Source: Nitrospirota bacterium
GTDB taxonomy: Bacteria; Nitrospirota; Nitrospiria; 2-01-FULL-66-17
Direction: 5' to 3'
DNA length: 64,000 nt
Assembly: GCA_040757335.1 (NCBI GenBank)
Contig: JBFLXB010000012.1
Location: forward strand, 15,246-79,245
Shown: positions 21,533 through 48,139 of the stretch, piece by piece
Layout: each line of letters begins with the position of its first letter
How positions within the stretch are numbered: the stretch's first letter is position 1
Notes under the pieces: generated by a model
The model's input: only the letters and a program-made list of their open reading frames with translations
What the model was told of the DNA's origin: nothing
The model's database searches: none
Made by a program: the position numbers and the translations under genes

Positions 21533-21615
21533 CGGGGTCCCACGTCCGACGGATACACGGATACAATGAATGTCACAGACTCACATACACGCGATGGGGG
21601 AGGGGGAATGAGGCC

Positions 21616-22902
21616 ATGAAGATGACGCAGAGAATTGGAATCCTTGGAGTGCTGGTGGCAAGCCTAGTCATTATGGGAGGCCTGGCCCAGGCCCAGGTCC
21701 CCCAACTCATCAACTACCAAGGGGTGCTGAAGAACGGCGGGGGAACCCCGATCACGGGGACGGTGAGCGTCACGTTCTCGATCTATTCGGGTCCCTCGGG
21801 GGGCACCGCGCTCTGGAGCGAAACCCAGAGCGTGGTCGTCACGGGTGGACTATTCAATGTGTTGCTGGGCTCCTCCACCGCGTTCCCGGCGTACTTCTTT
21901 CAGGGCACCACCCCGGATCGCTATCTCGGGGTAAAGGTCGGAAGCGATCCGGAGATGACGCCGCGGCAGCGGCTGGTCAGCGTGGGATACACGCTCAAGG
22001 CCGAGGATGCGGACAGCCTGGGAGACCGGATTGCGATTACAGACAAGCCCAATCAACGGGTTGGAGTTGGAACGTTGAGTCCCCAAGCGAAACTTCACGC
22101 CGAAGTCACCAGCCCGGCTGGTGAAGGGACGATGTGGGCCATCCAGACGCTCAGTAATTCGTCTCCCTTGCCGAGCACTATTGATACAGCCCTCAGGTTG
22201 CGGATCAACGACCAGAGCACGGCCAATATTCTTTCCAAACAGGTGTTTCGGTTGATCTACTTCCGGGATGCGGCGGCGACTGGCTCGGTCACCGATTTTG
22301 ATTCGACAATGGTGCTGGCCAACTTCATCAATTCGAATGCGCCGTACTCCCTACGTGGAATTACGGTCGAGGGGCCGCAAATCGCCACTGGGAGAACCCT
22401 GAATGAGTTCATTGGGCTGTTTGTTCGGGAGCCTTCGGTAACGGGCACGATCGCGAGTAACAAGGCCATCGTCACAGACCCCAGGGCTGGCAATATCGGG
22501 TTTGGGGTAACGAACCCCACCGAGCGTCTGGAAGTCGCGGGCAATGTCCGCGCGACCGCGTATCTCACCGGGAGTTCGCGAGAGTTGAAAAAGGGCATCA
22601 CGCCTCTCGGGCAAAACGACTACGCCAAGATCATGGATCAGATTAACGACTTGCAGATGGTCCGGTATCTGTATAAGACAGAGGACAATCGGCAGCCTCA
22701 CCTCGGCGTGATCGCGGAAGAGTCTCCGAAAGAGATTCTCGATGAAACCGGGAAGGCCGTCAGTCTAGCCGACTATGCGGGATTCATTCTGGCGGGCTTG
22801 AAGGCGCAGTCCGAGGAGATTCAGGCGCTCAAGGCGCACATTCGGGACTTGGAATCCAAACTTCCCGCGCCCGAGAATCAGGCCGCTGCACGAGTCGAGT
22901 GA
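21616..22902 (+). CDS. Secreted tail-fiber-like protein with a C-terminal Peptidase_S74 (endosialidase intramolecular chaperone) domain.
   Basis: Signal peptide. The N-terminal QLINYQGVLKNGGGTPITGTVSVTFSIYSG is typical of tail-fibre domain proteins. The C-terminal block SSRELKKGITPLGQNDYAKIMDQINDLQMVRYLYK...HLGVIAEESPKEIL...ADYAGFILAGLKAQSEEIQALKAHIRDLE matches the S74 autoprocessing chaperone domain. Confidence 0.75.
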   Translation: MKMTQRIGILGVLVASLVIMGGLAQAQVPQLINYQGVLKNGGGTPITGTVSVTFSIYSGPSGGTALWSETQSVVVTGGLFNVLLGSSTAFPAYFFQGTTPDRYLGVKVGSDPEMTPRQRLVSVGYTLKAEDADSLGDRIAITDKPNQRVGVGTLSPQAKLHAEVTSPAGEGTMWAIQTLSNSSPLPSTIDTALRLRINDQSTANILSKQVFRLIYFRDAAATGSVTDFDSTMVLANFINSNAPYSLRGITVEGPQIATGRTLNEFIGLFVREPSVTGTIASNKAIVTDPRAGNIGFGVTNPTERLEVAGNVRATAYLTGSSRELKKGITPLGQNDYAKIMDQINDLQMVRYLYKTEDNRQPHLGVIAEESPKEILDETGKAVSLADYAGFILAGLKAQSEEIQALKAHIRDLESKLPAPENQAAARVE

Positions 22903-22973
22903 GTTGCCTATAGCCACCCGGCTGGGCTGCTGGAGCCTCAACGCAGTTTCTCGGCCGTCTCCGCCGGCACTTC

Positions 22974-25238
22974 GTGAAAATCGCTCTTCGGGCCGGCTTG
23001 ATCGCGATGGTCATGGCGATCGTCATTGCTTCCGGCGACGTGGCGTGGTCCGTGGTTCCGCCGGGCGATTCCGCCGGACCGACACCGGTCGTGACCGCGG
23101 ATCGCGCGCCTGCCGAAGTCGTCGTTCGATTCAAACAAGGCACCACCTCAGGGGACAAAGAGCGAGCCCACATCGAGACTGACACCGAGGTCCTCTCGGA
23201 AATCCCTCGCCTGCGAATGGAGCGGCTGAGGTCAAAGCGGGGTGAGTCGGTGGACGCGCTGCTGCGATCCTTCGCCCAGAACCCTAACGTCGAGTACGTC
23301 GAGCCCAACTATATCGTGACGGCGTCAGCCGTGCCGAACGATCCGCGCTTCTCGGACCTGTGGGGCCTTCACAATATCGGTCAAACCGGCGGCATGGTCG
23401 ATGCGGATATCGACGCCCCCGAGGCGTGGGACCTCCAGACCGGAAGCAGCGGTCTCGTTGTGGGGGTGATCGACAGCGGGATCGACTACAACCACCCGGA
23501 TCTTACCGCGAATGTCTGGACCAACCCGGGAGAGGTCGCGGGCAACGGAATTGACGACGATCACAACGGGTACGTTGACGACATCCGTGGGTGGGACTTC
23601 GTCAATAACGACAACAACCCATTGGACGATTACGGGCATGGCACGCACGTCTCGGGCACGATCGGGGCGGTCGGGAACAACGGCGTGGGAGTGGTTGGCG
23701 TGGCCTGGCAGCTCAAGATCTTGCCCGTGAAGTTTCTGGACGCCACGGGGACGGGCACGTCGTTCGACGCCGCCTCCGCCATCGTCTACGCCGCGGACAT
23801 GGGCGCGAAGGTGCTGAACGCCAGTTGGGGGTGCTCCAATTGCTTTCCGCAAGTTGTGGAAAACGCGATTGCTTACGCCGATCAACAGGGGGTGGTGTTC
23901 GTGGCGTCGGCGGGCAACGAGGCCACGAACAACGATGTGATCCCGTCCCATCCCTGCGGATCCAGCCAGCCGAACGTGCTCTGCGTGGCGGCCACCACTG
24001 CTCAGGACGGTTTGGCGTCGTTCTCGAACTACGGCGCAGCCACGGTGGACTTGGGGGCGCCGGGGGTCAGTATTCTGTCCACGGTGCCTAATGGCGGATG
24101 TGCGTTCTGCGCGCCGTCACGGTATCTGTACGCCAGCGGCACCTCCATGGCCGCGCCTCACGTCGCGGGGGCGGCCGCCCTCGTGTTCAGCGAGAGCCCC
24201 ACGCTTTCGGTCGCTGAGGTCAAGCAGGCGATACTGGATACCGTCGATCCCGTGCCCGCCTTGGCCGGGGTGACGATGACTGGAGGAAGGCTCAACGCGG
24301 CAGCGGCCCTGGCGCAGGTCGGCCCTGTCGACCTGACCATGACCGATGTAACGCCGAACGCCGCGTCGGTCAATGCGGGGAGCACGCTATCGGTCTCTGA
24401 TACGACTTTCAACCAAGGGACCAGTGCAGCGGGGAGTTTCACGATCGCGTATCACCTGTCCACCAACACGAGTTCCGGCGATGGCGACGATATCGCGATC
24501 GCCACCACGCGGGCAGTGGGCTCCCTGGGCGGCGGTGCGTCGAACGTGGCCTCCACCGCGCTGGCGATCTCAGGGGGAACGCCTGCCGGGAACTATTACG
24601 TGTGCGCGATCGCTGATGCTGCGTCCGCCGTCATCGAAACGAACGAGGCCAACAACGCCCTCTGCAGTCCATCGACGGTCACGGTTCCCCCGCCGGATCT
24701 GATCGTGACCTCGGTCTTCACCGGGTCATCCGTGTTGGCGCCTGGAGACGCGTTCAATGTCTCTGACAGCGTTGCCAATCAAGGTGGATCGGCGGCTGGA
24801 GCCTTTCTGGTCGACTTTCATCTGTCGTCGGATCCGGCCTATGGCGGCACGGACGACATCACGTTGAGCGCCACGCGACCAGTGCCCTCGCTCAGTGCGG
24901 GAGCCACCAGCAGTGGGGCCACCACACAGACGATCCCGTTGACGGCACCCCTCGGCAATTACTACGTGTGCGCCAAGGCGGACAGCGGGAACGCAGTCTC
25001 GGAGGGCACGGCCGAGTCCAACAACACCCTGTGCAGCGCCCCCACGATCAGAGTGGCAATCCCGTCCACGAATCTGGGCGGAAGCGGAAGCAGCAGTACG
25101 GGCGGTGGGTCCATCGCCTCGTCGTCGTACCGGATGGAGCCGGGCGTGGTGGGCCAGGGCGTGGCGGGTTCAGGAGGGCAGAGTGCGGGCTACCAGCTTG
25201 AATCCGGATTTGGAGCCCAGATCGTTGGGCAGCAGTAA
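22974..25238 (+). CDS. Secreted subtilisin-like S8 serine protease with an I9 propeptide and two CARDB domains. Its C-terminal tail is shared with the DUF11 protein.
   Basis: GTG start with signal peptide. Triad motifs VIDSGIDYNHPDL, HGTHVSGTIG and GTSMAAPHVAGAAAL. Two roughly 115-aa CARDB repeats end in ...NYYVC(A)(I/K)AD...E.NN.LCS. The C-terminus is ...SSSYRMEPGVVGQGVAGSGGQSAGYQLESGFGAQIVGQQ. Confidence 0.85.
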   Translation: MKIALRAGLIAMVMAIVIASGDVAWSVVPPGDSAGPTPVVTADRAPAEVVVRFKQGTTSGDKERAHIETDTEVLSEIPRLRMERLRSKRGESVDALLRSFAQNPNVEYVEPNYIVTASAVPNDPRFSDLWGLHNIGQTGGMVDADIDAPEAWDLQTGSSGLVVGVIDSGIDYNHPDLTANVWTNPGEVAGNGIDDDHNGYVDDIRGWDFVNNDNNPLDDYGHGTHVSGTIGAVGNNGVGVVGVAWQLKILPVKFLDATGTGTSFDAASAIVYAADMGAKVLNASWGCSNCFPQVVENAIAYADQQGVVFVASAGNEATNNDVIPSHPCGSSQPNVLCVAATTAQDGLASFSNYGAATVDLGAPGVSILSTVPNGGCAFCAPSRYLYASGTSMAAPHVAGAAALVFSESPTLSVAEVKQAILDTVDPVPALAGVTMTGGRLNAAAALAQVGPVDLTMTDVTPNAASVNAGSTLSVSDTTFNQGTSAAGSFTIAYHLSTNTSSGDGDDIAIATTRAVGSLGGGASNVASTALAISGGTPAGNYYVCAIADAASAVIETNEANNALCSPSTVTVPPPDLIVTSVFTGSSVLAPGDAFNVSDSVANQGGSAAGAFLVDFHLSSDPAYGGTDDITLSATRPVPSLSAGATSSGATTQTIPLTAPLGNYYVCAKADSGNAVSEGTAESNNTLCSAPTIRVAIPSTNLGGSGSSSTGGGSIASSSYRMEPGVVGQGVAGSGGQSAGYQLESGFGAQIVGQQ

Positions 25239-25525: not shown

Positions 25526-26641
25526 GTGCAAGGGATGATGGGGTTCCTGAGATTTACCCTTGCGATGTTTGTGGTAACCGCGCATCTGACTGAAGGTGTG
25601 CGGTTCTTTTCACATTGGGGGGTGTTTGCAGTCTTCGGTTTTTACCTTATCTCCGGCTATCTGATGACCCTGATCCTTCATGAGACATATTCGTTTAGAT
25701 TTTCGTCGTTTGTGTTGAACAGATTCTTGCGCTTATTCCCGATCTACTATCTTGTGGCAGTTGTTTCGGCATATCTTATCCTGTCTGTACCAGCGTCTGC
25801 TGACTTTCTCTCGGTATGGGAAGTTAAATATCGAGCATCAGACTTTTTGGGGAATGGACTAATCTTCCCTTTTGAGTTCTACGATGCGTCTTTCCGCATA
25901 GTGCCGTCCACGTGGTCTATAGCCGTCGAGCTAATCAACTACTTTCTGCTTTGGTTGGTTGTTGCACGAAGTCGCTCCTTAGCACTTTCTACCGTATTGC
26001 TCACGATAACCTACCACGTCGTTACCCTTGCAGTGGGGATGGACTGGAGTAGCCGATACCGCCCTTTTTATGCAGCGCTTCTCCCATTTTCTCTGGGGGC
26101 ATGCATTTATTTCTGCCGTGATCAATTAGCGCGCTTGTCGATCTCTACTATTCGATATGTAGCCTTCGGTTCATTCCTGGTTTGGGTCGCGAATCTGATT
26201 CTTTGTGGTGTTGTGGCAGGGATGGGGGGGCCTCACTTTGACACCTTCTACTACTGGAACCTGGTCTCCTTGCTAGCTCTTATCTCTTGTCTAACCACTT
26301 CATCCCTGAAGTCTCTGTCCCCAAGGTGGGGAAAGATTTTTGGCGACCTGGCGTACCCGGCCTTTCTCACCCACTGGATCATTGGATTCGCCGTAAGTCT
26401 TTTCGTGCTAGGGGGGCAGAGGAGGGGTCTAGCGCTACTGGCTCTGTCTGTATTTCCGATACTTGCGGTGTCGTTTGCCCTAGCGTGGTCAGCTGACCGC
26501 TGGCTCGAGCCGTTGCGGGACAAGGTGCGAAGAAAAGTGGCTCTGCCCGCTACGGTCAGTTCAGGGCAAAGCAAATTTGAGAGAGTCTTCAGGAAGTCCT
26601 TTGGGTGGCTTAGGGTGTCCGGCGTGGACAATTCAGATTGA
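25526..26641 (+). CDS. Acyltransferase family 3 (OatA/OafA-like) integral membrane O-acyltransferase. Low-GC gene.
   Basis: N-terminal ...FVVTAHL..GV.FFSHWGVFAVFGFYLISGYLM motif (AT3 family) and about 10 TM helices. GC is roughly 48% against about 65% in the flanks. Confidence 0.8.
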   Translation: MQGMMGFLRFTLAMFVVTAHLTEGVRFFSHWGVFAVFGFYLISGYLMTLILHETYSFRFSSFVLNRFLRLFPIYYLVAVVSAYLILSVPASADFLSVWEVKYRASDFLGNGLIFPFEFYDASFRIVPSTWSIAVELINYFLLWLVVARSRSLALSTVLLTITYHVVTLAVGMDWSSRYRPFYAALLPFSLGACIYFCRDQLARLSISTIRYVAFGSFLVWVANLILCGVVAGMGGPHFDTFYYWNLVSLLALISCLTTSSLKSLSPRWGKIFGDLAYPAFLTHWIIGFAVSLFVLGGQRRGLALLALSVFPILAVSFALAWSADRWLEPLRDKVRRKVALPATVSSGQSKFERVFRKSFGWLRVSGVDNSD

Positions 26642-26776: not shown

Positions 26777-27364
26777 GTGATGAGAAAAGACGACAGCTTT
26801 CATCTCTTCCGCATCCTGGACGAACTCTCCAAGAACGGGGAGGTGACCCAGCGGGGGTTGAGCCGGCGGCTCGGGGTGGCCTTGGGATTGACCAATTTGT
26901 ACGTGAGGCGGCTTGGGAAGAAGGGCCTGATTAAAGTGGTCAACCTCAAAGCGAACCGCCTCCGGTACGAACTGACGCCCAGCGGCATCGCGCAGAAGAC
27001 CGCGATGGCGTTTCAATACGTTCAGGATTCCTACGTGTTCTACCGCGAGGCGCGACGGACGCTGACCGCAACATTCGAGGCGATGAAGAGGACGGGGGTA
27101 CGGTCGGTGGTGCTGTATGGAGCAGGGGACCTCGCCGAGATCGCGCTGCTTTCGCTGCAGGAGGCTGATCTCGACCTGACCGGCGTGGTGGGCCTAAAAC
27201 ACCAGGGGCAGTCGCTGTGCGGGAAGCCGGTGGCCGACCCCGCGTCGCTGGCGTCGATTGAATACGACCGGGTAGTGGTGGTAGAGCGCGAGCGAGAAGA
27301 CGCGATGAAATGTCTGGCGGATCTGGGAGTGGACGGTTCGAAAATCGTTTGCGTGGGAGTGTGA
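26777..27364 (+). CDS. Winged-helix transcriptional regulator with a C-terminal Rossmann-like domain (Rex-like architecture).
   Basis: N-terminal wHTH (FHLFRILDELSKNGEVTQRGLSRRLGVALGLTNLYVRRL) followed by VRSVVLYGAGDLAEIALLSL (GxGxxA dinucleotide-fold start). About 195 aa. Confidence 0.55.
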   Translation: MMRKDDSFHLFRILDELSKNGEVTQRGLSRRLGVALGLTNLYVRRLGKKGLIKVVNLKANRLRYELTPSGIAQKTAMAFQYVQDSYVFYREARRTLTATFEAMKRTGVRSVVLYGAGDLAEIALLSLQEADLDLTGVVGLKHQGQSLCGKPVADPASLASIEYDRVVVVEREREDAMKCLADLGVDGSKIVCVGV

Positions 27365-27374
27365 GCAGCAAGCC

Positions 27375-28172
27375 ATGAAATCCCAGGTGATGGGTGTCTG
27401 GCACTATCGCCACTTTATTCTCTCCTCCATCCGGAACGAGTTTCGCTCGCGGTTTATCCGCAGCCGCCTTGGCGGGCTGTGGATGATCATTCATCCCCTG
27501 GCCCAAGCCGCCATTTTCGCGCTGGTGCTGAGCCAAGTGATGGCCGCGAGGCTACCGGGTATGGCCGGAGACAAGTTTGCTTACGCCGTCTATCTTCTGT
27601 CCGGAATACTCGCCTGGTCGTTGTTTTCAGAGGTGATCGGCCGTTGCGTCACCCTATTCATCGACAATGGCAATCTGCTCAAGAAGATCGCGTTTCCCCG
27701 AATCAGCCTGCCGTTGATCGTGGCCGGCTCCGCGCTCGTCAACAACCTCCTCTTGTTTCTTGCCATCATCGTCGTCTTCGGTGTGCTGGGCCACGTACCC
27801 GGCATCCAGATCGCCTGGGTTCCGCTATTAATGCTGCTCACCTTGGCGCTCGGGCTTGGGGTCGGGATACTGCTCGGCGTGTTCAACGTATTTATCCGCG
27901 ATGTGGGGCAGGTGGTGCCGGTAGCGCTGCAACTGGGCTTTTGGTTCACCCCCATCATCTATCCTCCGAATGTTGTTCCGGAAGCCCTGCGCCCGATAAT
28001 GAACCTGAACCCCATGGCTATGGTGGTCCAGAGTTTCCACAAGGCCCTTCTCTTCAACACGTCTCCCGAGTTCGTTAGTCTGGGGGTGGTTCTTCTGGTT
28101 ACTTTTGCGTTGTTGGGTATGGCGCTCAGCGTTTTTCGGCGTGCCGGTGCCGAAATGGCGGATGTGTTGTGA
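27375..28172 (+). CDS. wzm: ABC-2 type polysaccharide export permease.
   Basis: About 265 aa with six TM helices. The N-terminal ...RNEFRSRFIRSRLGGLWMIIHPL matches the ABC2_membrane signature. It precedes the ATPase with a 4-nt overlap. Confidence 0.85.
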   Translation: MKSQVMGVWHYRHFILSSIRNEFRSRFIRSRLGGLWMIIHPLAQAAIFALVLSQVMAARLPGMAGDKFAYAVYLLSGILAWSLFSEVIGRCVTLFIDNGNLLKKIAFPRISLPLIVAGSALVNNLLLFLAIIVVFGVLGHVPGIQIAWVPLLMLLTLALGLGVGILLGVFNVFIRDVGQVVPVALQLGFWFTPIIYPPNVVPEALRPIMNLNPMAMVVQSFHKALLFNTSPEFVSLGVVLLVTFALLGMALSVFRRAGAEMADVL

Positions 28173-29464
28173 GCGCTCCGATGATCGAGGTCGAGAACAT
28201 CGGCAAATCGTTCCGGACGTATTCGAGCCAATGGCACCGCTTCCGAGGGTGGTTCGGAGCGGGTCCTCGGCGATACGCTGATCACTGGGTGTTGCGAAAC
28301 GTCTCATTTGCAGTCGGGGCGAGCGAATCCATCGGTATCCTCGGCCGTAACGGTGCGGGGAAGAGCACCCTCCTCAAGCTGATCGTCGGGACCCTCGCAC
28401 CCTCTGAAGGCCACGTGAAGGTCGGGGGCCGCATCAGCGCGATCCTCGAATTGGGGATGGGCTTCAACGCCGAATTCACCGCCCGCCAAAATGTCCTGTA
28501 TGGATGTGGACTGTTGGGCTACAACCGGGACGAAATCGAGTCGGCGATGCCGGAAATCGAACGCTTCGCCGATATCGGTGAGTATTTTGATCAACCCCTA
28601 CGCACCTCCTCCAGCGGCATGCAGATGCGGGTAGCGTTCGCGGCCGCTACCGCGTTTCGCCCGGACGTGCTGATCGTGGACGAAGCTCTTTCGGTGGGCG
28701 ATCTCTTTTTTCAAGCAAAGTGTTTCGAGCGGATCGGCGAGATGAAGGCGTCTGGTACCACGCTGCTCTATGTGTCACATGCGGCGGGAGATATTGCGAA
28801 ACATTGCGAGCGTGCCCTGTTCATCAAGGAGGGCAGGCTCCTCATGGATGGGCCGGCACGTGAGGTCTCAAATGTGTACCTGGACGATCTCTTCGGAAAG
28901 AGCGCGCCCCACCAAAGAACCGTACGATCAGCTCAGGCTGCTAACGAAACACGGTTTGCCGCAGATAACGTCGAGCGCTTCCACACGCGGCCTTTTTACC
29001 GAAAAGACGAGCATCGGTGGGGTGTTGGCGGGGGACGTGTTCTCGATTTCTTGGTCGAGGTCGATGGCGAAGCATTTCCTTCCGCTATCTATTCACATCA
29101 AAGGATGCGAGTCTCGTTTAAGGTTCATTCTGAGCAGGAACTCGCGAAGCCCATATACGGGTTGCTGATCAAGACGATCGAGGGGATCTACGTCTACGGT
29201 ACCAACTCCAAATTTGCGCAACCAGGAGTGACCCCGTCGTCCGTACCTGCGGGCGATAACCGGGTGGTGTCGTTCGAATTTCCCATGATGTTGAACACTG
29301 GGGCTTACCTGATTTCCCTGGGAGTCTCGAATGAGGATGACAGCGGGCAGGTCGTGCCCATCGATCGGCGGTATGACTCTGTCCTGATAACGGTGACGAA
29401 CGGGCAGCAGGGATCGGGGCTTGTCGATCTTGCAGCCCAATTTGAATGCCACAAGGCCGCATGA
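28169..29464 (+). CDS. wzt: Polysaccharide export ABC ATPase with a C-terminal O-antigen terminus-binding (Wzt_C-like) domain.
   Basis: Walker A GRNGAGKST, the LSSGMQMRVAFAAA signature, and Walker B LIVDEALSVGD. About 180 extra C-terminal residues form a beta-rich domain as in E. coli O9a Wzt. Confidence 0.85.
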   Translation: MSAPMIEVENIGKSFRTYSSQWHRFRGWFGAGPRRYADHWVLRNVSFAVGASESIGILGRNGAGKSTLLKLIVGTLAPSEGHVKVGGRISAILELGMGFNAEFTARQNVLYGCGLLGYNRDEIESAMPEIERFADIGEYFDQPLRTSSSGMQMRVAFAAATAFRPDVLIVDEALSVGDLFFQAKCFERIGEMKASGTTLLYVSHAAGDIAKHCERALFIKEGRLLMDGPAREVSNVYLDDLFGKSAPHQRTVRSAQAANETRFAADNVERFHTRPFYRKDEHRWGVGGGRVLDFLVEVDGEAFPSAIYSHQRMRVSFKVHSEQELAKPIYGLLIKTIEGIYVYGTNSKFAQPGVTPSSVPAGDNRVVSFEFPMMLNTGAYLISLGVSNEDDSGQVVPIDRRYDSVLITVTNGQQGSGLVDLAAQFECHKAA

Positions 29465-31737
29465 GCATCGAGCATCGCCAGTCCATTCCCTCGCTCGTAG
29501 CAGCACTGCCGGAGGTATATCAACCCATTTATGGCCATCCGGAAATATCGTGGTCGGCCTCGCGCGAATGCGGTGACCGCCTAAACGAAATCGTAGCGGT
29601 ATATGAGGCGTTGTCGGCAAACCACCGGCGACCTCTGCGTGTGCTGGATCTCGGCTGCGCACAGGGATTCATCAGCCTTAGCCTGGCCGCACAAGGCGCT
29701 GTCGTGGTCGGAATCGACAACCTGGCGGCCAATGTCGCCGTCTGCAACGCGTTGCGTGAGGCGAATCCGACGTTTGATGTTCAGTTTCGCGAGGCCGCGA
29801 TCGAGTCCACGATCGAACACCTGAACCCCGGGGAGTTCGACCTGGTGCTCGGGCTCAGTGTGCTTCATCATCTGTGTCACCGGTACGGTAAAGACAGAGT
29901 TCGCGAATGGACGACCGCCTTGACCGCAAAGGCTGAAATCGCGGTGTTTGAACTTGGCGTCGCGAGTGAGCCGCTCGACTGGGCGAAATCCTTGCCTGAA
30001 GACGAGCGATATCTACTCGACGGCGTTCCGTTTGTCCATGAGCTGTCACGTTTTCCGACCCATCTGTCCGAGATTATGCGGCCGCTCTATGTGTGCAGTA
30101 GCCGGTATTGGTATTTGGATGGAAAGCTGGGTGCGTTTGCCAAATGGACAACCAGCTCCCATTCCCTCGCCGGAGAGGCTCACGAGGGGACGCGCCGGTA
30201 CTTCTTTGGCGAAGGGCAACTCGCGAAGGTATTTCGGCTGACTGGACGGCTAGCCAAACCAAATCGCGATGAAATTGAGCAGGAGGCCGAGTTCCTGGAT
30301 TCCCCTCCGCCCGGGTTTCCACGCGCGCCGTCATTGTTTACCAAAGGCACCACCGACCGTGAGGCCTGGCTCGCCAGAGAGGCCCTGGGCGGCGATCTGT
30401 TGATTGATCTGATACGCGGGCAGGTCGCCTACGACAGCAGGGCAATCTTGCTGGACGTGCTGGATCAATTGTGTGCTTTGGAGGAAGTTGGGCTCTATCA
30501 CAGAGACGTCAGGGTCTGGAACGTCATCGTGGGGCCGGACGGCAGAGCCTCGCTCATTGATTTCGGTGCCATATCCAAGAAACGGGAAGATTGCATTTGG
30601 CCAAGCGATGTGATCCTTTCGTTTGTTATTTTCGTCCGAGACGTTTCTGCACGGAGTGTTGATCGTGCTTTTCCACGGCAGCCATTCATCAGCCCATATA
30701 ACTTGCCAGACCCGTTCAATAGGTGGATTTTGAGCGTGTGGCATCAGCCAGTGGCTGTCTGGAGTTTCAAGCTGCTCAGAGAGAGTCTGCAAAACCTCCC
30801 GGATCGTTCTGATCAGCCGGATATCATTGGCGAAGCACAAGCTCTGTGGATACAAGCCATTGAGCGGCATCTTGATGGACTGGGTTCGTACGCCAGCCGT
30901 ACTCAGATGGTGAGCAGCGACCTAGCCAATCAGCTTTCTCAGGTGCGCACTCAGATCGAAACGCTGCGCCAAGACCTAGCTGCGCAACTGCATGCGCAGC
31001 AACATGCGCAGGCGCTTGCCGATGCACGCCTGCAGGAGCTCCAAGCAATCTACTCCAGCCGTTCGTGGCGCATGACGGCGCCACTCCGTCAGGGAGCGGT
31101 ATTCGCCAGGCGCTGGGTGGGCCGCATCGCCAATGTCGAATGGACCGTAGGCAGACTTCCGCGGCGTTGGGCGGGTTACACTGCAATCCGTCGTATCGGC
31201 GGGATAGTGCTTCGGCCCTTCCGAAGAGTTCGGCATCGCGTCAAACGGGTCGCACCGGCTGTCGACACAAGAACCCGCATAGGACAGGCAGTCCCGGGTG
31301 CCGCACCTACTCCATCGGAGTCTGAGATCGCACCGGCCATTAACACTATTCGACATCGGATCGTGGAGCAATTGGATAGCTATGTCGCTTGGCAGGAGAG
31401 TCATCCCGTCAGTACGCTGGAAAGAAAGCTCTGGGAAGATGGTCTGCGCATCGACGCCACGGTGTATCCGGTGGGCGCGTTGCGAAGACTACCGGAGGCC
31501 TATCTGTTTGAGGCTCTCAGCATCCTGTTATTTAAACGCCCCCTCGAAAAGATGCCGATGATCAGTGCTCTTGGGAAGCTCCGTCTCCGGAGGGGGCTGA
31601 TACTCGTGTTGTGCACCGTTCTACCAGGCCGCCGCGCACGGATTTCCGGGCTGTACAGGCGAGTGATTCGCGATGTCTTGTCGGTGAGCCCGCCCATACT
31701 GGCGTTTGCCAGAAGGATCTATTTCCGGGTCCGATGA
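29461..31737 (+). CDS. WbdD-like bifunctional chain terminator: SAM methyltransferase, protein-kinase-like domain, coiled-coil, C-terminal domain.
   Basis: MTase motif I VLDLGCAQGFISLSLA. Kinase catalytic loop YHRDVRVWNVIV and DFG (SLIDFGAIS). A long heptad region follows (LSQVRTQIETLRQDLAAQLHAQQHAQALADARLQELQ). ATGA coupling with wzt. An alternative start lies at 29446. Confidence 0.7.
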   Translation: MSIEHRQSIPSLVAALPEVYQPIYGHPEISWSASRECGDRLNEIVAVYEALSANHRRPLRVLDLGCAQGFISLSLAAQGAVVVGIDNLAANVAVCNALREANPTFDVQFREAAIESTIEHLNPGEFDLVLGLSVLHHLCHRYGKDRVREWTTALTAKAEIAVFELGVASEPLDWAKSLPEDERYLLDGVPFVHELSRFPTHLSEIMRPLYVCSSRYWYLDGKLGAFAKWTTSSHSLAGEAHEGTRRYFFGEGQLAKVFRLTGRLAKPNRDEIEQEAEFLDSPPPGFPRAPSLFTKGTTDREAWLAREALGGDLLIDLIRGQVAYDSRAILLDVLDQLCALEEVGLYHRDVRVWNVIVGPDGRASLIDFGAISKKREDCIWPSDVILSFVIFVRDVSARSVDRAFPRQPFISPYNLPDPFNRWILSVWHQPVAVWSFKLLRESLQNLPDRSDQPDIIGEAQALWIQAIERHLDGLGSYASRTQMVSSDLANQLSQVRTQIETLRQDLAAQLHAQQHAQALADARLQELQAIYSSRSWRMTAPLRQGAVFARRWVGRIANVEWTVGRLPRRWAGYTAIRRIGGIVLRPFRRVRHRVKRVAPAVDTRTRIGQAVPGAAPTPSESEIAPAINTIRHRIVEQLDSYVAWQESHPVSTLERKLWEDGLRIDATVYPVGALRRLPEAYLFEALSILLFKRPLEKMPMISALGKLRLRRGLILVLCTVLPGRRARISGLYRRVIRDVLSVSPPILAFARRIYFRVR

Positions 31738-34700
31738 GCCTCATGCCGATGTTTTCACACTTTTCCGGGCGCATCGTGCAGGTGATTGAAGGGCTGGATC
31801 TCCATGACGCCGTGTCCAACCATGTCCTGAGTCTCGACCGGACTCTTCGTGAGGACTACGGGCTCAGGACCGAGATTTTCGCAGGAGGTTCGCATCCAGA
31901 GAGAGAGCAATACGTTCGGCATATTGCCTTACTGGAGCTGGACGAGCGGGATATCGTGATTTATCACTACTCCGGCTACGCGGAGCACACGGCGGAGAAG
32001 GTCGCGAGCCAGAAGGCGATCAAGATCCTTCACTATCACAACATTACACCGCACGAGTTCTTCCGGCCAGGCAGTCACCTGTACCAACACTGTCGCGAGG
32101 GGCGCCGGCAGCTCGTCGACCTTCTTGACCGATTCGATCTCTTTACCGGTGATAGCCAGTACAACATCGATGAACTGATTTCCCTCGGCATCTCGAAGGA
32201 CAAGACGCAAGTGCTTCGAATTGTTCTCGACACTACCATGGCCGAGCGCCAGGTCTCGCAGCCGGCGCCTCGCAATGTGCTGTTCGTAGGCCGAATTGCG
32301 GAGAACAAGAGGCAGGATCGGATCGTGGAGGTCTATTCACGTCTGCTGAAAGCCGGACACCAGCTCGGGAAGCTGGTATTGGTTGGCAGATACGATTCCG
32401 GCAGCCCGTTCTACAAGAGATTAATGGAAACTGTTCGAACGTTGGATTTGCAGGATCGTGTCGAGGTCATGGGGAGGATTGGACAGTCCGAGCTTAATGA
32501 GCAGTATGCGAATGCGGGGCTGTTTCTTTCGATGAGCGAGCATGAAGGATTCGGCGTTCCGCTGCTCGAGGCGTGCCGCCACGATATCCCTGTCTTGGCG
32601 CTCGCCCGCACGGCTGTTCCGGAGACCCTTCAGCACTCACCCGGCCTCTTTGAGACCGACGCGGAGCTTGTACAACTCGTGGCCCGGATCGAGAAGGACC
32701 CGTCGTTTCGGGAGGCGCTCCTTGCACACCAACGAGCAGTACTCGCGAGCTATAACAATGAAGTCCACAATCAGCTTGCGAGACTGCTGAATCGTCTGAT
32801 CCCGCAACCGGACACGTACACGAGCGTCAGTATTGTCATCTGTACCTACAACCGTGGAGATCTGCTCGATCGGGCGCTGGACTATTTGCAGCGTCAGCAC
32901 GACCCGCGCTGTGAGGTCGTGGTGGTGGACGGCCCCTCGACCGACAACACCGGCGAGGTCATCGACAAATGGCGTCACCGCATCAAGGTCGCCAAGAACT
33001 CAGAACGCAACCTGTCGATCTCTCGAAATATTGGGATTCGACTCGCTGCGGGCGATATCGTTGCGTTTATCGATGACGACGCGTTGCCGTTCGGTGACTG
33101 GGTCGGAGCTCTGCTTGCTGAATACAACTCCGTGCCCCGCGCCGTTGGTGGTATCGGTGGCGTGACATATCTTGCGGGCTCTCTGGAGTTCCAGGCAGAG
33201 GACATAGTCGTTGACTCATACGGCCGAGCCACGCTGAATCCCACTCGTGACGAGACACTGCGATCTGACAGGTTTCGCACGCAGCTTGGGACGAACTCAT
33301 CGTTCAAGAGGAAAGTCTTGCTAGAAATCGGCGGGTTCGATGAGGAATATGACTATTTCTTGGATGAATCTGATGTATGCATGCGAGTTCTTCGCGCTGG
33401 TTACCGGCTGGTTTGTTCGCCTCAACTGTTCATTCGACATGAGTTTGCACAGAGTGACAACCGGATCAATAAGTACCGTTATAACTGGTACTCCATCTGC
33501 AAGAACACGGCCTATTTCGCTCTCCGCTTTAACACCGGGAACCCGACCGACATCATTTCTGCAGTTCGAGAGCAAATCGCGCAGGATCGCGTCGCGAAAC
33601 TCACAGAGGGGCTGAAGAGAGGAGTGGTCGCGCAGGACGACTTTGACGCAATGGGCCGCGACATTTGGCGCGGAGTGGAAGATGGCATTAGGCACGCGGC
33701 AGGCCCACGCCATCTGTTGCACGACGCCGATTCGCCAAGCGCTTTTCTGCACTATCATACGGAAGCACGCGTTTTCACACCGCTGCACGTCATGCTGGTC
33801 ACGAAGGAGTTCCCGCCCTTTACCCCAAGCGGCGGGGTAGGGACGCTGTTTTATCACTTGGCCAGCGAGCTCTTGCTGATGGGGCATCGCGTCAGCGTGA
33901 TCGCTCAGGGGCCTGAAGAGAGTAGGCATCAACGAGGGCGCTTCACGCTGCATCGGATACCTGCGGTCTCAACGAGCACCTTTGGCAGTGACAGCGCTGT
34001 TGTTGAGGGAAGTCTCAATTGGTCGATGCGTGTGGCGGAGATGCTCCTCGAGATACACCGTCGCGATCCCATATCGGTGATCGACACGTGCGTGTGGGAC
34101 TACGAGATGTACGCGTTTGCGGCCTACCGACCGCGGGTAGACATTCCGTTGGTCGTTCGACTTGTCACGCCGTTTGCGGTGGCCTGTGAGAGCAATGGTT
34201 GGAAGTTCACCGAGCGCGAAAAGGACCTTGTGTGTGAGCTGGAGCGTGGGTTGATCGACATGGCGGACTGCGTCATCCCGATCAGCGACTCGATCAAGGA
34301 GACGTTCACGAAAGTCTACGGGCTCAACCCTGATAAGCGCTGGCACACGGTACCCGCGGGTCTGGCCTATTGGCCATCGTTCGAAGTCGATAAGGACTAT
34401 GCCGAGATTGCCCATCTACCAGAACTTGCCGTCGCCAAGGAGAGCGGCAAGTTTATCTTTCTATTTCTGGGGCGCCTTGAGCCTCGCAAAGGGATCGATG
34501 TGTTCCTTTCTGCTGTCCAGCATTTCGTGGAACGACATCCGATGCGTGATGACTGTCTCTTTGTCGTGGCCGGTAAGGATTGCATGCGACTGAGCGAGCG
34601 GTTGCACGAGTATCTCGACCGAGCGGCGAGAGCGCGCGTGCTGTTCACGGGCGAGCTATCGCTGGGCGATCGTGACAAGGTCTACAGTGCCGCCGATGTG

Positions 34701-35945
34701 GTGGTGTTTCCCTCGCGGTATGAGTCCTTTGGGCTCGTGCCACTCGAAGCATTTGTGCATGGCAAGCCGGTGATTGGCGCTAATGCGGGCGCCATACCTG
34801 AAGTGGTGCAACATGATCGCTCCGGCCTTCTCTTTGAGGACGGAGATCCGGGAGCCTTGGCGGATTGTCTTGAACGCCTATTGGATGATCGAGCGTTGTG
34901 CCGCCGTCTCGGGCAAGGCGCGAGGCATCGCATCCGGGAGTTGTCTTCGGCGAAGATGGCGCTGAGAAGCGAAGAGGTTTATCGCCTAGCAAGAGAGCGA
35001 ACGTTTTATCGACAATATCACAACGTAACAATAAACGAGATAACCAAGGACAGTTCTCCAATATCTATTGATGAGAAATCATTGAGTTGGTTAGATGTTC
35101 CTCGCAAGGATTTCATTGATTACGTGATACATCGAGATCCATTACCATTTGACGAGGTTCCGCCTGACGATAATCAGTACATAAAGAAGCCGACATTCAT
35201 GATAACCCAGATGCACCGTTTGTGGTTGACGGCGCGAATAATTGATAGCCACTTAGAGAAGAGAGAGAATGGTGTCTTTTTAGACGTAGGCGCATTTCCA
35301 TTTTCGATGGCGATAATTCTCAGAGAGTATCTGAAATATAAGGGAAGAATTACGGCAACGATCAATTTGCCTCTTCGCGAGTCATGGAAAAGTGAATTAG
35401 ACAGAAGAGCGATCCACGTTCTCTATGCGAACCTTGACCCGTATGTAAGGGCAACCGATGAAGACGAGAACGTCGAGGAAATGGTCAATGGCATTGAATT
35501 AGAAAGTGAGTCGGTGGATTTCATCAATTGTTCTCATGTAATTGAACATTTATATCATCCCTTGGAGATGCTGAAGGAGATGTATAGAGTGCTAAAAGTA
35601 GGAGGGAAGCTGCTAGTTTCCTCTGACAATGCTCTTATGCTTAACACACTATTACATCTCTGGTCGCTCAGTGACTTTCTGCATGAGCCTGTGGAGGGGA
35701 CAGCGGCGATGTCGTTCGGCTTTTGGAGAGGACATAACAGATTTTTCACAGAAAAAGATACAGGGACCATGCTCAAAAAGGTTGGGTTCAGGATCATCGA
35801 GAATCATTTTTATGAAGTGTTGTACAACTCGTTCTGTGAGGACTACTTTCGCCATCCAATAGTGACAATACCTAGGTGGAGGGCAGATATCCTAACTCGA
35901 ATTCCGGAACACCGGAACGAACTAATTGTAGTTGCTGCAAAATGA
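31734..35945 (+). CDS. Giant multidomain glycan polymerase (GT4 - GT2 - GT4 - class I SAM methyltransferase), about 1400 aa.
   Basis: GT4 EX7E motif MSEHEGFGVPLLEACRHDIPVLA. GT2 motifs SIVICTYNRGDLL...VVVVDGPSTDNT...IDDDA. A second GT4 (FLGRLEPRKG...SRYESFGLVPLEAFVHGKPVIGANAGAIPEVV). C-terminal MTase_11 (FLDVGAF...VDFINCSHVIEHLYHP...VLKVGGKLLV). The last roughly 1 kb has markedly lower GC. ATGA coupling with the upstream gene. Confidence 0.8.
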   Translation: MSLMPMFSHFSGRIVQVIEGLDLHDAVSNHVLSLDRTLREDYGLRTEIFAGGSHPEREQYVRHIALLELDERDIVIYHYSGYAEHTAEKVASQKAIKILHYHNITPHEFFRPGSHLYQHCREGRRQLVDLLDRFDLFTGDSQYNIDELISLGISKDKTQVLRIVLDTTMAERQVSQPAPRNVLFVGRIAENKRQDRIVEVYSRLLKAGHQLGKLVLVGRYDSGSPFYKRLMETVRTLDLQDRVEVMGRIGQSELNEQYANAGLFLSMSEHEGFGVPLLEACRHDIPVLALARTAVPETLQHSPGLFETDAELVQLVARIEKDPSFREALLAHQRAVLASYNNEVHNQLARLLNRLIPQPDTYTSVSIVICTYNRGDLLDRALDYLQRQHDPRCEVVVVDGPSTDNTGEVIDKWRHRIKVAKNSERNLSISRNIGIRLAAGDIVAFIDDDALPFGDWVGALLAEYNSVPRAVGGIGGVTYLAGSLEFQAEDIVVDSYGRATLNPTRDETLRSDRFRTQLGTNSSFKRKVLLEIGGFDEEYDYFLDESDVCMRVLRAGYRLVCSPQLFIRHEFAQSDNRINKYRYNWYSICKNTAYFALRFNTGNPTDIISAVREQIAQDRVAKLTEGLKRGVVAQDDFDAMGRDIWRGVEDGIRHAAGPRHLLHDADSPSAFLHYHTEARVFTPLHVMLVTKEFPPFTPSGGVGTLFYHLASELLLMGHRVSVIAQGPEESRHQRGRFTLHRIPAVSTSTFGSDSAVVEGSLNWSMRVAEMLLEIHRRDPISVIDTCVWDYEMYAFAAYRPRVDIPLVVRLVTPFAVACESNGWKFTEREKDLVCELERGLIDMADCVIPISDSIKETFTKVYGLNPDKRWHTVPAGLAYWPSFEVDKDYAEIAHLPELAVAKESGKFIFLFLGRLEPRKGIDVFLSAVQHFVERHPMRDDCLFVVAGKDCMRLSERLHEYLDRAARARVLFTGELSLGDRDKVYSAADVVVFPSRYESFGLVPLEAFVHGKPVIGANAGAIPEVVQHDRSGLLFEDGDPGALADCLERLLDDRALCRRLGQGARHRIRELSSAKMALRSEEVYRLARERTFYRQYHNVTINEITKDSSPISIDEKSLSWLDVPRKDFIDYVIHRDPLPFDEVPPDDNQYIKKPTFMITQMHRLWLTARIIDSHLEKRENGVFLDVGAFPFSMAIILREYLKYKGRITATINLPLRESWKSELDRRAIHVLYANLDPYVRATDEDENVEEMVNGIELESESVDFINCSHVIEHLYHPLEMLKEMYRVLKVGGKLLVSSDNALMLNTLLHLWSLSDFLHEPVEGTAAMSFGFWRGHNRFFTEKDTGTMLKKVGFRIIENHFYEVLYNSFCEDYFRHPIVTIPRWRADILTRIPEHRNELIVVAAK

Positions 35946-36150
35946 AGGCCGCGATTGGTATGTTAGGACGTCTTATGGCTTCGTCGTTATAAAGAGTCAT
36001 TAAGCTCTCTCTTTCGGCGCTTTGGGTGGTGGTGCGTCACCCAGTGACGCAGGTCAGTGACTCGGGCAGACCTGGTGGACCACTAAGACGAATGCCGATT
36101 GGAAATACACCGCGGCATCATTGGGCGAGGCGATAGGAAAGGCGTGAGTC

Positions 36151-36981
36151 ATGTCTGAATGGCGTAATGACGTATTGAAGACCAGAGTTGACCATGTATT
36201 CGAAAAGATTAAGACGATTCCAAGTGATCTCAGATCGGGGCGATGCTTAGACATTGGGTGCGGAATGGGTGGTGGTGTCATTGCCGCATTGAAGCACGGC
36301 GCTTCACTGTCCGTAGGTATCGACCGGAATCTGAATGAGTTTCAACATGATATGAATTTTGCGAGGTTTGGAGAGGCCTGTAATTTCTTTCAGGTCAATG
36401 CCGACCAAGCAGTGATGATCCAGGCCGACGTCTTTAAGTGTGATGTCTTTCGTGGCTATTTTGACTACTGTATCCTTGTCGACACAATTGAGCATGTCCC
36501 AAATCAGCGTGAATTTATTCGCTACGCATACAGATCCCTCAAGCCGGGAGGGGTCCTGCTAGTAGATACGTGTCCTTTGTACTATAGCCCGGTCGGACAT
36601 CACCTATGGCAATGGTTCCCAAAGGAATCGGATCCGTGGGCGCATTTACGCTCAGACTTCGATGAGCGTTTGAAAGCGAAAGGAGTTGACCAATGGACAA
36701 TCGAGCGTTATCGGCAACTAAACCGGGTGACATACTCAGAAGTGATAGACATGGTCTCAGAAGCTGGGTTTACTGTTGTGAGGACAAATCAGCAAGCGCC
36801 GCGTAGTGAAATGGTGAGTCTTTATGAGAAATATGGCGCTTTGATTGATGTCGAAATCCCTGTTCCGAAGGACTGTCTATTCCAGGACTGGATAGAGGTT
36901 GTGGCGAGGAAAGACGGGTGGTTAAAGCGTCTAACAAAAAGGCTCGGCCGTCGGGTGAGGAGGATAGCGGGCCGGTCTTGA
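36151..36981 (+). CDS. Class I SAM-dependent methyltransferase.
   Basis: Motif I CLDIGCGMGGGVIAAL and post-I/II motifs (...LKPGGVLLVDT). Confidence 0.75.
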   Translation: MSEWRNDVLKTRVDHVFEKIKTIPSDLRSGRCLDIGCGMGGGVIAALKHGASLSVGIDRNLNEFQHDMNFARFGEACNFFQVNADQAVMIQADVFKCDVFRGYFDYCILVDTIEHVPNQREFIRYAYRSLKPGGVLLVDTCPLYYSPVGHHLWQWFPKESDPWAHLRSDFDERLKAKGVDQWTIERYRQLNRVTYSEVIDMVSEAGFTVVRTNQQAPRSEMVSLYEKYGALIDVEIPVPKDCLFQDWIEVVARKDGWLKRLTKRLGRRVRRIAGRS

Positions 36982-37010
36982 AAGGTTAAGGAGGAATCGG
37001 GACAAGTGTT

Positions 37011-40881
<3,871 letters not shown>

Positions 40882-40909: not shown

Positions 40910-42073
40910 ATGAAGATTGCGATCGATGTGCACAAGATTGCGGGGCGGCGCAGCGGGATCGGGCAGTACACGGATCACATCGTTGGCTGCCTGGTCAAGC
41001 AGCACCAGGGTCATCGGTACTTTCTGTGCCATTACGGATTGCACCCTTCTGCAGTGGGTCGCTGGATACAGGGTGGGGATGTTGCGGCCTGGGAACATGC
41101 GCGTGCGCGTGGGTTCACCGGGGTCGGATTTCCCTTTCGGAAAGTGGCAAGGATGTATTCATCCGCCTGCACGAGGGTTGTGATGCGGCGCACCCCGGTG
41201 GACCTGTTTTGGGGACCGAACTACCGCACGTTGGTTGGCCCGGCATTCAAGACCGCCGTGACGATCCACGACATGGCCCATCACCACTATCCGCAGTATT
41301 TCCCCCGGTCTGTCCTGTTCTACCTGAAGCATCGGCTGCGAGGGGTGGCCGCTCGCTCTCACCTGATTCTGACCGACTCCGAGCACTCTCGCCGCGATAT
41401 CGTCAATTATCTGGGTCAGAAACCTGAAAAGGTTGTGGTCGCCTATCCCGGGGTCGACCGGAGTTTCCGCCCTCTATCCGATCCCGAGACACAAGCCGCA
41501 GTCAGGACTCGGTATCACCTCCCGGAGCGGTTCCTGCTGTTTCTCGGCACGCTGGAGCCGCGGAAGAACCTCGTGGGGTTGCTCAAGGCGTTCGCGCGAG
41601 CGCGCGAGCGGGGCCTCGACGCACCGCTCGTGCTCGCCGGCGATCCCGGCTGGATGTACCGCGACGTGTTTCGGACGATTCGGAGTGAGGGACTTGAGAA
41701 AGCTGTGATCACTACTGGCTATGTCCGGGACGAGGACCGCCCGGCGCTGTATTCGATGGCCGAGGTGTTCGTCTACCCCAGTTTCTACGAGGGGTTTGGG
41801 CTGCCGGTCCTCGAGGCCATGGCGTGCGGGACCCCGGTCATCACCTCGCGGGTCTCCTCGCTTCCCGAGGTCGGCGGCGAGGCGGTCAGGTACGTCGATC
41901 CGATGTCGACCGGCGACATCGCGTCGGCAATTCTGGAATTGTGGCAGAGCGACTCGCTGCGTCAGACGCTCCGTGAACGAGGATTGAAACAGGCCGCAGG
42001 GTTCACTTGGGATGCGTGCGCCCGGACGATCCTGAGTGCCTTTGAGGGCGTGGTCTACGGAGTCGTGCGATGA
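40910..42073 (+). CDS. Glycosyltransferase family 4.
   Basis: C-terminal GT4 signature FLGTLEPRKN...PSFYEGFGLPVLEAMACGTPVITS. Confidence 0.8.
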   Translation: MKIAIDVHKIAGRRSGIGQYTDHIVGCLVKQHQGHRYFLCHYGLHPSAVGRWIQGGDVAAWEHARARGFTGVGFPFRKVARMYSSACTRVVMRRTPVDLFWGPNYRTLVGPAFKTAVTIHDMAHHHYPQYFPRSVLFYLKHRLRGVAARSHLILTDSEHSRRDIVNYLGQKPEKVVVAYPGVDRSFRPLSDPETQAAVRTRYHLPERFLLFLGTLEPRKNLVGLLKAFARARERGLDAPLVLAGDPGWMYRDVFRTIRSEGLEKAVITTGYVRDEDRPALYSMAEVFVYPSFYEGFGLPVLEAMACGTPVITSRVSSLPEVGGEAVRYVDPMSTGDIASAILELWQSDSLRQTLRERGLKQAAGFTWDACARTILSAFEGVVYGVVR

Positions 42074-48137: not shown

Positions 48138-48139
48138 GG

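Follow-up and report, generated by a model that had tools for sequence, protein, structure and literature searches.

The closest described relatives of the locus reported here are the ATP-binding cassette (ABC) transporter-dependent O-polysaccharide systems of Escherichia coli O9a and Klebsiella pneumoniae O3. Their polymerases are of the WbdA type, made up of GDP-mannose-dependent family 4 glycosyltransferase (GT4) modules only, two in O9a/O3 and three in O8/O5 (PMC11231755). We have analyzed a stretch of 64,000 nucleotides (the window) from contig JBFLXB010000012.1 of a Nitrospirota bacterium, in which four open reading frames (ORFs) on the plus strand at 27375-35945 encode Wzm, Wzt, a WbdD-like protein and a multi-module polymerase. 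The ORF listing places them exactly where an earlier reading, made from the letters and without database searches (the sequence-only reading), had put them, and Pfam and PDB homology bear out its claim of an ABC-transporter-dependent polysaccharide machine with O9a-type logic. The gene order wzm-wzt-wbdD-polymerase, the translational coupling, both catalytic sites of WbdD and a coiled-coil-like helix are common to our locus and to O9a/O3. We suggest, with a probability of roughly 0.8, that the locus makes an ABC-transporter-dependent surface polysaccharide by the "cap, measure, export" principle of O9a/O3, and that the product is most likely a lipopolysaccharide (LPS) O-polysaccharide.

There are also clear differences from O9a/O3. 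The polymerase is of another family, with a GT4-GT2-GT4 core and a methyltransferase domain; gmd and rmd point to D-rhamnose, whereas O9a is a pure mannan; the helix is shorter than that of O9a WbdD, with about 75 residues confidently modelled; and the window has four additional methyltransferase domains. The sequence-only reading had described the locus as a mirror of O9a wzm-wzt-wbdD-wbdA. This holds for the order, the coupling, the terminator and Wzt, but not for the polymerase, which is not of the WbdA family.

Other described systems share parts of this design. The wxc cluster of Xanthomonas campestris encodes a D-rhamnan O-antigen, with wzm/wzt and gmd/rmd, and its WxcB resembles the methyltransferase and kinase domains of WbdD (PMC4878081). 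The likeness of our locus to wxc is drawn from that description, and the Xanthomonas glycan differs in having an N-acetylfucosamine (FucNAc) side branch. In ORF6 of Klebsiella O7, a chain with a methyl phosphate cap (PMC11231755), and in WbbB of Klebsiella O12, a terminator placed far along a coiled coil is combined with a multi-module glycosyltransferase polymerase, which is the same modular logic. However, terminator, coiled coil and polymerase form one polypeptide there, whereas terminator and polymerase are separate in the window, and the O7 kinase is AmiN-like whereas ours is WbdD-type. The deep-branching Aquifex aeolicus has an ABC-exported, capped, rhamnose-rich O antigen of D-rhamnose and D-mannose with alternating alpha and beta linkages. 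Its nucleotide-binding domain is homologous to ours (E ~1e-50), but its cap is 3-O-methyl and its Wzt binding domain was undetected by sequence from that of the window. In the TET operon of Pseudomonas syringae (wzm-wzt-wbdD-wbdA), the described "WbdD" is a plain O-methyltransferase.

The WbdD-like terminator and the exporter

The WbdD-like ORF (29461-31737) encodes 758 residues, and the crystal sequences of E. coli O9a WbdD match residues 8-516 at E=5e-109, with 42% identity over 486 aligned positions. By this alignment the protein is a true WbdD homologue. It begins with an S-adenosylmethionine (SAM)-dependent methyltransferase domain (29461-30105; Methyltransf_31/25/11 at ~1e-9, residues 43-160), which is followed by a eukaryotic-like kinase domain (30106-30795) that has a weak Pkinase match in Pfam and is assigned by its aligned catalytic residues and an AlphaFold2 model. 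Next come a long heptad helix (30829-31056, residues 457-532) and a C-terminal region (31057-31737) with an SxSWRxTxPLR motif, a very basic stretch and a helical tail modelled at low confidence. The sequence-only reading had seen methyltransferase, kinase and a long coiled coil in this one ORF, and both the match to O9a WbdD and the heptad register support it. A sequence database search returned 356 clusters of WbdD homologues, with hosts such as Pseudomonas, Dyella, Hydrogenophaga, Acidovorax, Aeromonas, NC10, Chloroflexi and others, and some are already annotated as [quoted passage not shown]. A contig scan with the same protein was uninformative, as it gave only three Tsukamurella loci matching 100 kinase residues at 28% identity.

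The roles of individual WbdD residues, including the phosphate-binding cluster H132/H133/R203, are taken from the structure paper (PMC3482155). The equivalents of Y16, H132, H133 and R203 in the methyltransferase are kept in our protein and are invariant in 36 homologues. In the kinase, K256, E271, H347, D349, W353, N354 and D367-F-G align to K252 (the presumed beta-3 Lys), E274, H349, D351, W355, N356 and D369-F-G of WbdD. The motifs are H347-R348-D349 and D367-F368-G369, with E271 and E275 as candidates for the Glu. Most of these kinase-core positions are invariant in the alignment of the 36 homologues and the Lys is nearly so. Loss of the kinase Lys or Asp was one of the checks proposed by the sequence-only reading; the Lys, the catalytic Asp, the Asn and the DFG motif are all conserved. 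A degenerate kinase is ruled out by these conserved catalytic residues.

The AlphaFold2 model has a predicted local distance difference test (pLDDT) score above 90 over residues 10-445, and it superimposes on the WbdD crystal structures 4azw, 4ax8 and 4uw0 with target-normalised template modelling (TM) scores of 0.84-0.93. Residues 457-532 form one continuous helix of about 75 residues (pLDDT 84-88). There is a single heptad register over residues 452-521, in which 62-75% of the a/d positions are hydrophobic, and this contrast was equalled by 34 of 2000 shuffles. The modelled helix is thus a candidate for a coiled-coil spacer or ruler. Beyond it, S533, S535, P541 and R543 of the SxSWRxTxPLR motif are nearly invariant. 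By analogy with E. coli WbdD (PMC11231755), the C-terminal region would presumably attach the protein to the membrane and bring in the polymerase.

The exporter consists of an ABC-2 permease, Wzm (27375-28172; ABC2_membrane 5.9e-26), and a two-domain Wzt (ORF 28169-29464). The Wzt nucleotide-binding domain (28169-28927; ABC_tran 3.1e-20) finds TarH and A. aeolicus Wzt in the PDB at 1e-50 to 1e-52. The C-terminal domain (28928-29464) is a carbohydrate-binding domain of the E. coli O9a type, with a Wzt_C match (PF14524, 2.4e-27, residues 281-421). The sole PDB match of the last 181 residues is the C-terminal domain of E. coli O9a Wzt (2r5o, 4.7e-38), and the jelly-roll assignment follows from sequence homology to this solved domain. 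The extra C-terminal domain claimed by the sequence-only reading is therefore present, and the check that it had attached to the claim, that the extension might lack a carbohydrate-binding fold, went in its favor since the extension is a homologue of a solved binding domain. Inspection of the junctions also confirms that the four genes are coupled: the start of wzt overlaps the wzm stop in GTGA, and ATGA overlaps join wzt to wbdD and wbdD to the polymerase gene.

We compared Wzt with its counterparts from six loci. Three have a WbdD-type terminator (E. coli O9a, L009 and Pseudomonas L010); the other three (Citrobacter L004, E. coli L011 and the FkbM-type L006) have a polymerase of the same family as the window's and other terminators. 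Identity in the nucleotide-binding domain lies at 53-61% for every one of the six. In the binding domain it reaches 39-43% (E<=1e-44) against the three WbdD-type loci, with 39% for O9a, whereas against the other three it is no more than 21-28% and confined to short stretches (E 1e-2 to 5e-5). In this small sample of three against three loci, the binding domain tracks the type of terminator and not the type of polymerase. Cap recognition predicts such a pattern, which lends indirect support to the view that the binding domain would recognize the cap specifically and that export would depend on capping.

A different arrangement is seen in three metagenome loci with GT4-GT2-GT4 polymerases (L012, L013 and L008). 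Their ABC ATPase has only 217 residues, without Wzt_C, and an ORF of 374-445 residues without a Pfam match adjoins wzm. These loci nonetheless encode a WbdD-like protein (L012) or DUF4214/FkbM proteins. In them cap recognition may reside in a separate protein or be absent.

The polymerase and its fused methyltransferase

The polymerase ORF (31734-35945, 1403 residues) holds three glycosyltransferase modules and a methyltransferase in one polypeptide, an architecture that the sequence-only reading had proposed and that Pfam recovers. Module 1 is GT4-like with a GT-B fold (31734-32783; Glycos_transf_1/Glyco_trans_1_2, residues 130-342). Module 2 is a family 2 glycosyltransferase (GT2) with a GT-A fold (32811-33533; Glycos_transf_2 2.9e-26, residues 366-528). 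Module 3 is again GT4 (33786-34997; Glyco_transf_4, residues 700-876, and Glycos_transf_1, residues 902-1065), with an MshA-type GT4 as PDB match at 4e-23. The EX7E motif of module 1 (E271/E279), D404 and D447-D448-D449 of module 2 and the EX7E motif of module 3 (E997/E1005) are all invariant in 22 homologues. Thus, all three modules look active, and a vestigial N-terminal glycosyltransferase module is ruled out by its invariant EX7E. Since the central module is GT2, the protein does not have the WbdA-type composition of GT4 modules only.

The GT4-GT2-GT4 core, about 1085 residues long, is a widespread family and not a rare one, with 690 database clusters at E<=1e-10. It is 38-68% identical to 21 family members. 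Relatives at 41-50% identity come from Serratia, Pantoea, Klebsiella, Citrobacter, Vibrio, Burkholderia, Paraburkholderia and Cupriavidus, and E. coli is also in the family. We found no biochemically characterised member, and as far as we found the relatives are annotated only as "glycosyltransferase".

The Enterobacterales loci (E. coli, Citrobacter, Serratia and Pantoea) carry polymerase cores that are 45-50% identical to ours over 77% of the query. Citrobacter and E. coli have the gene between galF and gnd, in the order manC-manB-wzm-wzt-two small ORFs-polymerase-gmd-rmd-GT4-GT4, and the E. coli wzm is annotated "O60 family". An upstream Wzm and binding-domain Wzt and the order polymerase-gmd-rmd-GT4 are common to these loci and the window, but in the window a 3.9-kb methyltransferase block intervenes between the polymerase gene and gmd. 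Moreover, two small uncharacterised genes replace wbdD in the Enterobacterales, the polymerases are without the fused methyltransferase, and the Wzt binding domains are unrelated to ours at the sequence level. The two small ORFs at the wbdD position (8779-9999 in Citrobacter L004/L005 and 7701-8997 in E. coli L011) encode 264-289 and 138 residues without a Pfam match. They are candidates for an undescribed terminator.

A WbdD-like gene directly upstream of a GT4-GT2-GT4 polymerase gene is found in one further locus (L012). The order wzm-wzt(binding domain)-wbdD-polymerase recurs with a triple-GT4 polymerase in L009 and with a dual-GT4 polymerase in L010. The latter, a Pseudomonas locus of the common polysaccharide antigen (CPA) type, continues with gmd-rmd-GT4-GT4 and has an O9a-type binding domain like that of the window, but its polymerase is a dual GT4 of about 830 residues.

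The fourth domain of our polymerase (35001-35945) has a methyltransferase fold, with a Methyltransf_23 match at 2.3e-10 (Methyltransf_23/11, residues 1227-1356). Its family (residues 1090-1403) is rare: we found 30 representatives at E<=1e-30 among 1.84 billion sequences and 47 clusters at E<=1e-15 among 5.8 billion, and with few exceptions the members stand alone, at about 315 residues. Motif I reads LD(L/V)GAFPFS instead of GxGxG and is conserved in this form, and HVIEHLYHP and WRGHxRF are invariant. The model of the domain (pLDDT 88) has a class I SAM-methyltransferase fold, and among the structures that match it best are the sugar O-methyltransferases RebM and AtmM. In L013 a stand-alone member lies 40 nt downstream of the gene for a 1121-residue GT4-GT2-GT4 polymerase, and in L014 another lies in a wzm-wzt(binding domain) cluster with a 1330-residue polymerase. 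These stand-alone members argue that the family is a dedicated partner of this polymerase type, and a fused methyltransferase unrelated to the polymerase is ruled out by them. C-terminal methyltransferase extensions are present in about 8 of the best 120 polymerase-family clusters and come from at least four families: PF13578, FkbM, canonical PF13847/PF13649 and the GAFPFS family. Fusions of glycosyltransferase and methyltransferase genes have also been reported in the CPA operon of some P. syringae isolates (PMC7820976).

The base composition changes sharply at the fusion. GC content is 0.56-0.58 in the three glycosyltransferase modules and 0.42 in the methyltransferase domain, and the drop comes no more than about 60 nt from the position at which homologues without the fusion stop (residues 1087-1095). 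The low-GC block (34980-38900) takes in the two methyltransferase genes that follow (0.49 and 0.52), and before gmd-rmd the GC content climbs back towards the ~0.65 of the genes that flank the cluster. The first of these genes encodes a stand-alone SAM methyltransferase (36151-36981, plus strand; Methyltransf_23 1.8e-15), and the second a two-domain protein (37011-38873, plus strand) with Methyltransf_25 (PF13649 4.8e-16, residues 159-245) and FkbM (PF05050 1.4e-21, residues 417-586). The three further methyltransferase domains that the sequence-only reading had placed downstream are thus found, one in the first gene and two in the second, and the cluster has five methyltransferase domains overall. 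From its composition, we read the block as a probable acquired methyltransferase cassette inserted between polymerase and gmd.

The sequence-only reading had also called the combination of synthase and cap unusual. This is not so for the core, which is common, for methyltransferase fusions, which recur, or for the WbdD neighbor, which has a counterpart in L012. It does apply to the rare GAFPFS family and the sharp GC break. Every pairwise association in the locus has a precedent, and the exact four-domain protein beside wbdD was seen only in this genome.

Sugar supply, mechanism and rival explanations

Downstream of the methyltransferase block, gmd (38939-39928, plus strand) encodes a GDP-mannose 4,6-dehydratase (TIGR01472, 447.5 bits against a cut-off of 415). 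Its stop overlaps the start of rmd (39925-40881, plus strand) in GTGA, and the PDB matches of Rmd are 2pk3 at 1e-72 and 6x3b at 1.7e-59. Because gmd and rmd are both present and synteny with the relatives is kept, the backbone is most plausibly D-rhamnose-based. D-rhamnose, which the sequence-only reading had predicted, appears well supported as a component of the glycan. For the polymerase family as a whole a D-rhamnan product may be proposed, an assignment that comes from the precursor genes only. Because GT4 modules are retaining and GT2 modules inverting, the chain might well carry both alpha and beta linkages, as known D-rhamnans do. We rejected an O9a-like polymannan on account of rmd, the GT2 module and the different polymerase family. 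The GT4 gene after rmd (40910-42073, plus strand; Glycos_transf_1 3.5e-33) encodes a protein 30-36% identical to its positional counterparts in Citrobacter and Pseudomonas, and it is a candidate adaptor or priming-stage glycosyltransferase.

Xylose, the other sugar predicted by the sequence-only reading, fares less well. A UDP-glucuronate decarboxylase (UXS) gene is present (42189-43151, plus strand; human UXS1 at 2.5e-124), but it lies beyond the core, has a host-like GC content (0.62) and is next to a toxin-antitoxin pair, and Pfam scans of the larger ORFs found no UDP-glucose dehydrogenase in the window. Xylose is thus doubtful. UXS might instead serve a second envelope module at 54359-58650 rather than the O-polysaccharide. 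The toxin-antitoxin pair is of type II, on the minus strand at 43294-44012, with a PIN-domain toxin (43294-43794; 3.3e-10) and a Phd/YefM antitoxin (43686-44012; 2.6e-7); it sits inside the glycan region, between the UXS gene and the next GT4 gene.

We propose the following mechanism. Gmd and Rmd would supply GDP-D-rhamnose. At the cytoplasmic face, the three-module polymerase would extend a lipid-linked chain with a high content of D-rhamnose and/or D-mannose. The fused methyltransferase and the three downstream methyltransferase domains would add O-methyl groups along the chain, although a "heavily O-methylated" glycan, as the sequence-only reading put it, is suggested by the count of domains. 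The WbdD homologue, held off the membrane by its helix of about 75 residues, would phosphorylate the non-reducing terminal sugar and then methylate the terminal phosphate, and growth would stop. The O9a-type Wzt binding domain would recognize this cap, and the finished chain would enter the Wzm/Wzt channel. Of this account, what we observe are the homologies, the conserved catalytic residues, the order and coupling of the genes, and a binding domain that co-varies with the terminator.

A number of points weigh against this proposal. The sugar identity, the linkages, the methyl-phosphate cap, the ruler function, the recruitment of the polymerase and the attachment to lipid A-core are what we infer from these observations. 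Three acceptor residues of O9a WbdD differ in our protein (Y230 to H234, R270 to P267 and D350 to R348), and the Y230F mutant of E. coli WbdD is inactive (PMC3482155). The C-terminal tail has a pLDDT below 60 and is not alignable to E. coli WbdD. A WbdA-like dual-GT4 enzyme of Pseudomonas, a comparator that is not E. coli WbdA itself, aligns with the polymerase in partial GT4 segments only, at 23-29% identity, so recruitment of the polymerase by the WbdD tail is not to be assumed. Motif I of the fused domain reads GAFPFS in place of GxGxG, so that SAM binding by this domain is putative. WecA/WbpL, WaaL and ManB/ManC were not identified in Pfam scans of the larger ORFs of the window. All the data come from one metagenome-assembled genome, and exact look-ups with the WbdD-like protein (both starts) and the polymerase gave no independent copy of the fused gene. 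Some of these points are eased by other observations. A His at the Y230-equivalent position (residue 234) is nearly invariant across the 36 WbdD homologues, which makes E. coli WbdD the outlier there, and the acceptor-residue changes would fit a different acceptor sugar. Genes for priming with undecaprenyl-diphosphate-linked N-acetylglucosamine (Und-PP-GlcNAc) and for ligation by WaaL are often encoded elsewhere in the genome.

One alternative concerns the nature of the cap. The WbdD homologue might add phosphate or methyl only, or another methyltransferase, such as the fused or the FkbM domain, might terminate the chain with WbdD as a scaffold or ruler. The cluster has five methyltransferase domains available, the closest relatives of the polymerase have FkbM-type methyltransferases at the terminator position (L006/L007), the D-rhamnans of A. 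aeolicus and others carry 3-O-methyl caps, and the acceptor-site residues of the kinase differ from O9a. Yet the kinase retains its catalytic residues and the methyltransferase its phosphate-binding His-His-Arg, and the Wzt binding domain groups with kinase-containing WbdD loci, neither with FkbM and other loci nor, by sequence, with the 3-O-methyl-binding domain of A. aeolicus. We therefore consider a cap other than methyl phosphate unlikely. The same machinery could also make a non-LPS product, for instance a glycan of an S-layer or of surface proteins, a polymer resembling a capsule, or an exopolysaccharide, since Wzt-type export with methylated caps also serves Gram-positive S-layer glycans, for example with Geobacillus WsaE. 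Large surface-protein genes (DUF11, Peptidase_S74 and an S8 subtilase with CARDB) lie directly upstream, and genes for WaaL, WecA or Wzz-independent ligation were not recognized in Pfam scans of the window. However, Nitrospirota are diderms, the characterised relatives of the cassette cited here are all O-polysaccharide systems, and in E. coli and Citrobacter a homologous polymerase is encoded at the classical O-antigen position between galF and gnd. It is common, moreover, for the genes of ligases and initiating transferases to lie outside O-antigen clusters. A non-LPS product thus seems quite improbable, and we favor an LPS O-polysaccharide.

Concerning the four-domain polymerase, we also weighed whether the fusion or the low-GC block (34.98-38.9 kb) could be an assembly chimera, or the fusion a sequencing error that erased a stop codon. 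The GC content falls from ~0.60 to 0.35-0.45 within about 60 nt, exactly at the end of unfused homologues, the methyltransferase family is otherwise almost always stand-alone at about 315 residues, and the sole 100% match to the fused protein is the genome's own record. Against such an artefact, the reading frame is open across the junction with no stop codon, and the block sits between the conserved polymerase and gmd-rmd-GT4 in the order of the relatives, so that a chimera needs two precise joins. A double assembly chimera is less likely because synteny is kept on both sides. In L013 the unfused neighbors are only 40 nt apart, which makes a natural fusion a small step, and this polymerase family has often been fused, independently, to methyltransferases of other families. 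An artefact is very unlikely on this evidence, and we treat the fusion as natural.

Through this locus, the chain-termination and export mechanism known from E. coli and Klebsiella is extended to Nitrospirota, a phylum of environmental importance that has been little studied. The locus exemplifies natural module swapping, with an O9a-type terminator and exporter paired with a polymerase family that, as far as we found, lacks known biochemistry. The current understanding is not overturned; the O9a-type cassette on a non-WbdA polymerase, the rare polymerase-linked methyltransferase family and the sharp mosaic junction lift the locus slightly above the routine. We tentatively put forward a broader proposal, to which we give somewhat less than even odds. 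The glycan would be a previously undescribed one, a D-rhamnose chain with in-chain O-methylation by a polymerase-coupled methyltransferase and an O9a-like methyl-phosphate cap. The fused enzyme would be the first assigned member of the GAFPFS family, a family found only beside or fused to GT4-GT2-GT4 polymerases, and the wzm-wzt(binding domain)-wbdD cassette would move as a unit between unrelated polymerases. If this is true, caps would be recognized whatever the backbone. Two of our observations, that binding domain and terminator co-vary and that a methyltransferase family is linked to the polymerase, offer usable leads for predicting caps from sequence and for glycoengineering.

Layout and neighboring genes

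Alternative in-frame starts lie a few codons away for wzt (ATG 28181) and wbdD (ATG 29446). For the polymerase, NCBI places the start at ATG 31743, three codons later than ours, which gives 1400 instead of 1403 residues. The polymerase gene is followed by a noncoding gap of 205 nt (35946-36150), in which a perfect 7-bp inverted repeat, GCGTCAC-CCA-GTGACGC, lies at 36034-36050. Lying where the four coupled genes give way to the methyltransferase genes, this repeat might serve as a terminator or as a hairpin with a regulatory role.

Upstream of the cluster, three surface-protein genes at 18320-25238 encode a DUF11-repeat protein (1070 residues), a protein with a Peptidase_S74 chaperone domain (428 residues) and an S8 subtilase with CARDB (754 residues). 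They are followed by the gene for an Acyltransferase_3 membrane protein (25526-26641, plus strand; PF01757 8.2e-11), with a GC content of 0.50 against flanks of 0.65. The protein may O-acylate the glycan; the gene is at the cluster edge, and its membership is uncertain. Further along the window, the ORF at 48128-49423 has no Pfam match. The second envelope-modification module, at 54359-58650 after purH and purD, comprises a PAP2 phosphatase, a PMT_2 (ArnT-like) transferase, a GT2 and an LPG_synthase_TM-domain protein. Finally, a winged-helix MarR/HTH_24 protein (26777-27364, plus strand; HTH_24 2.1e-10) is encoded by a gene that ends 10 nt 5' of wzm, and by its domain it is a candidate regulator.

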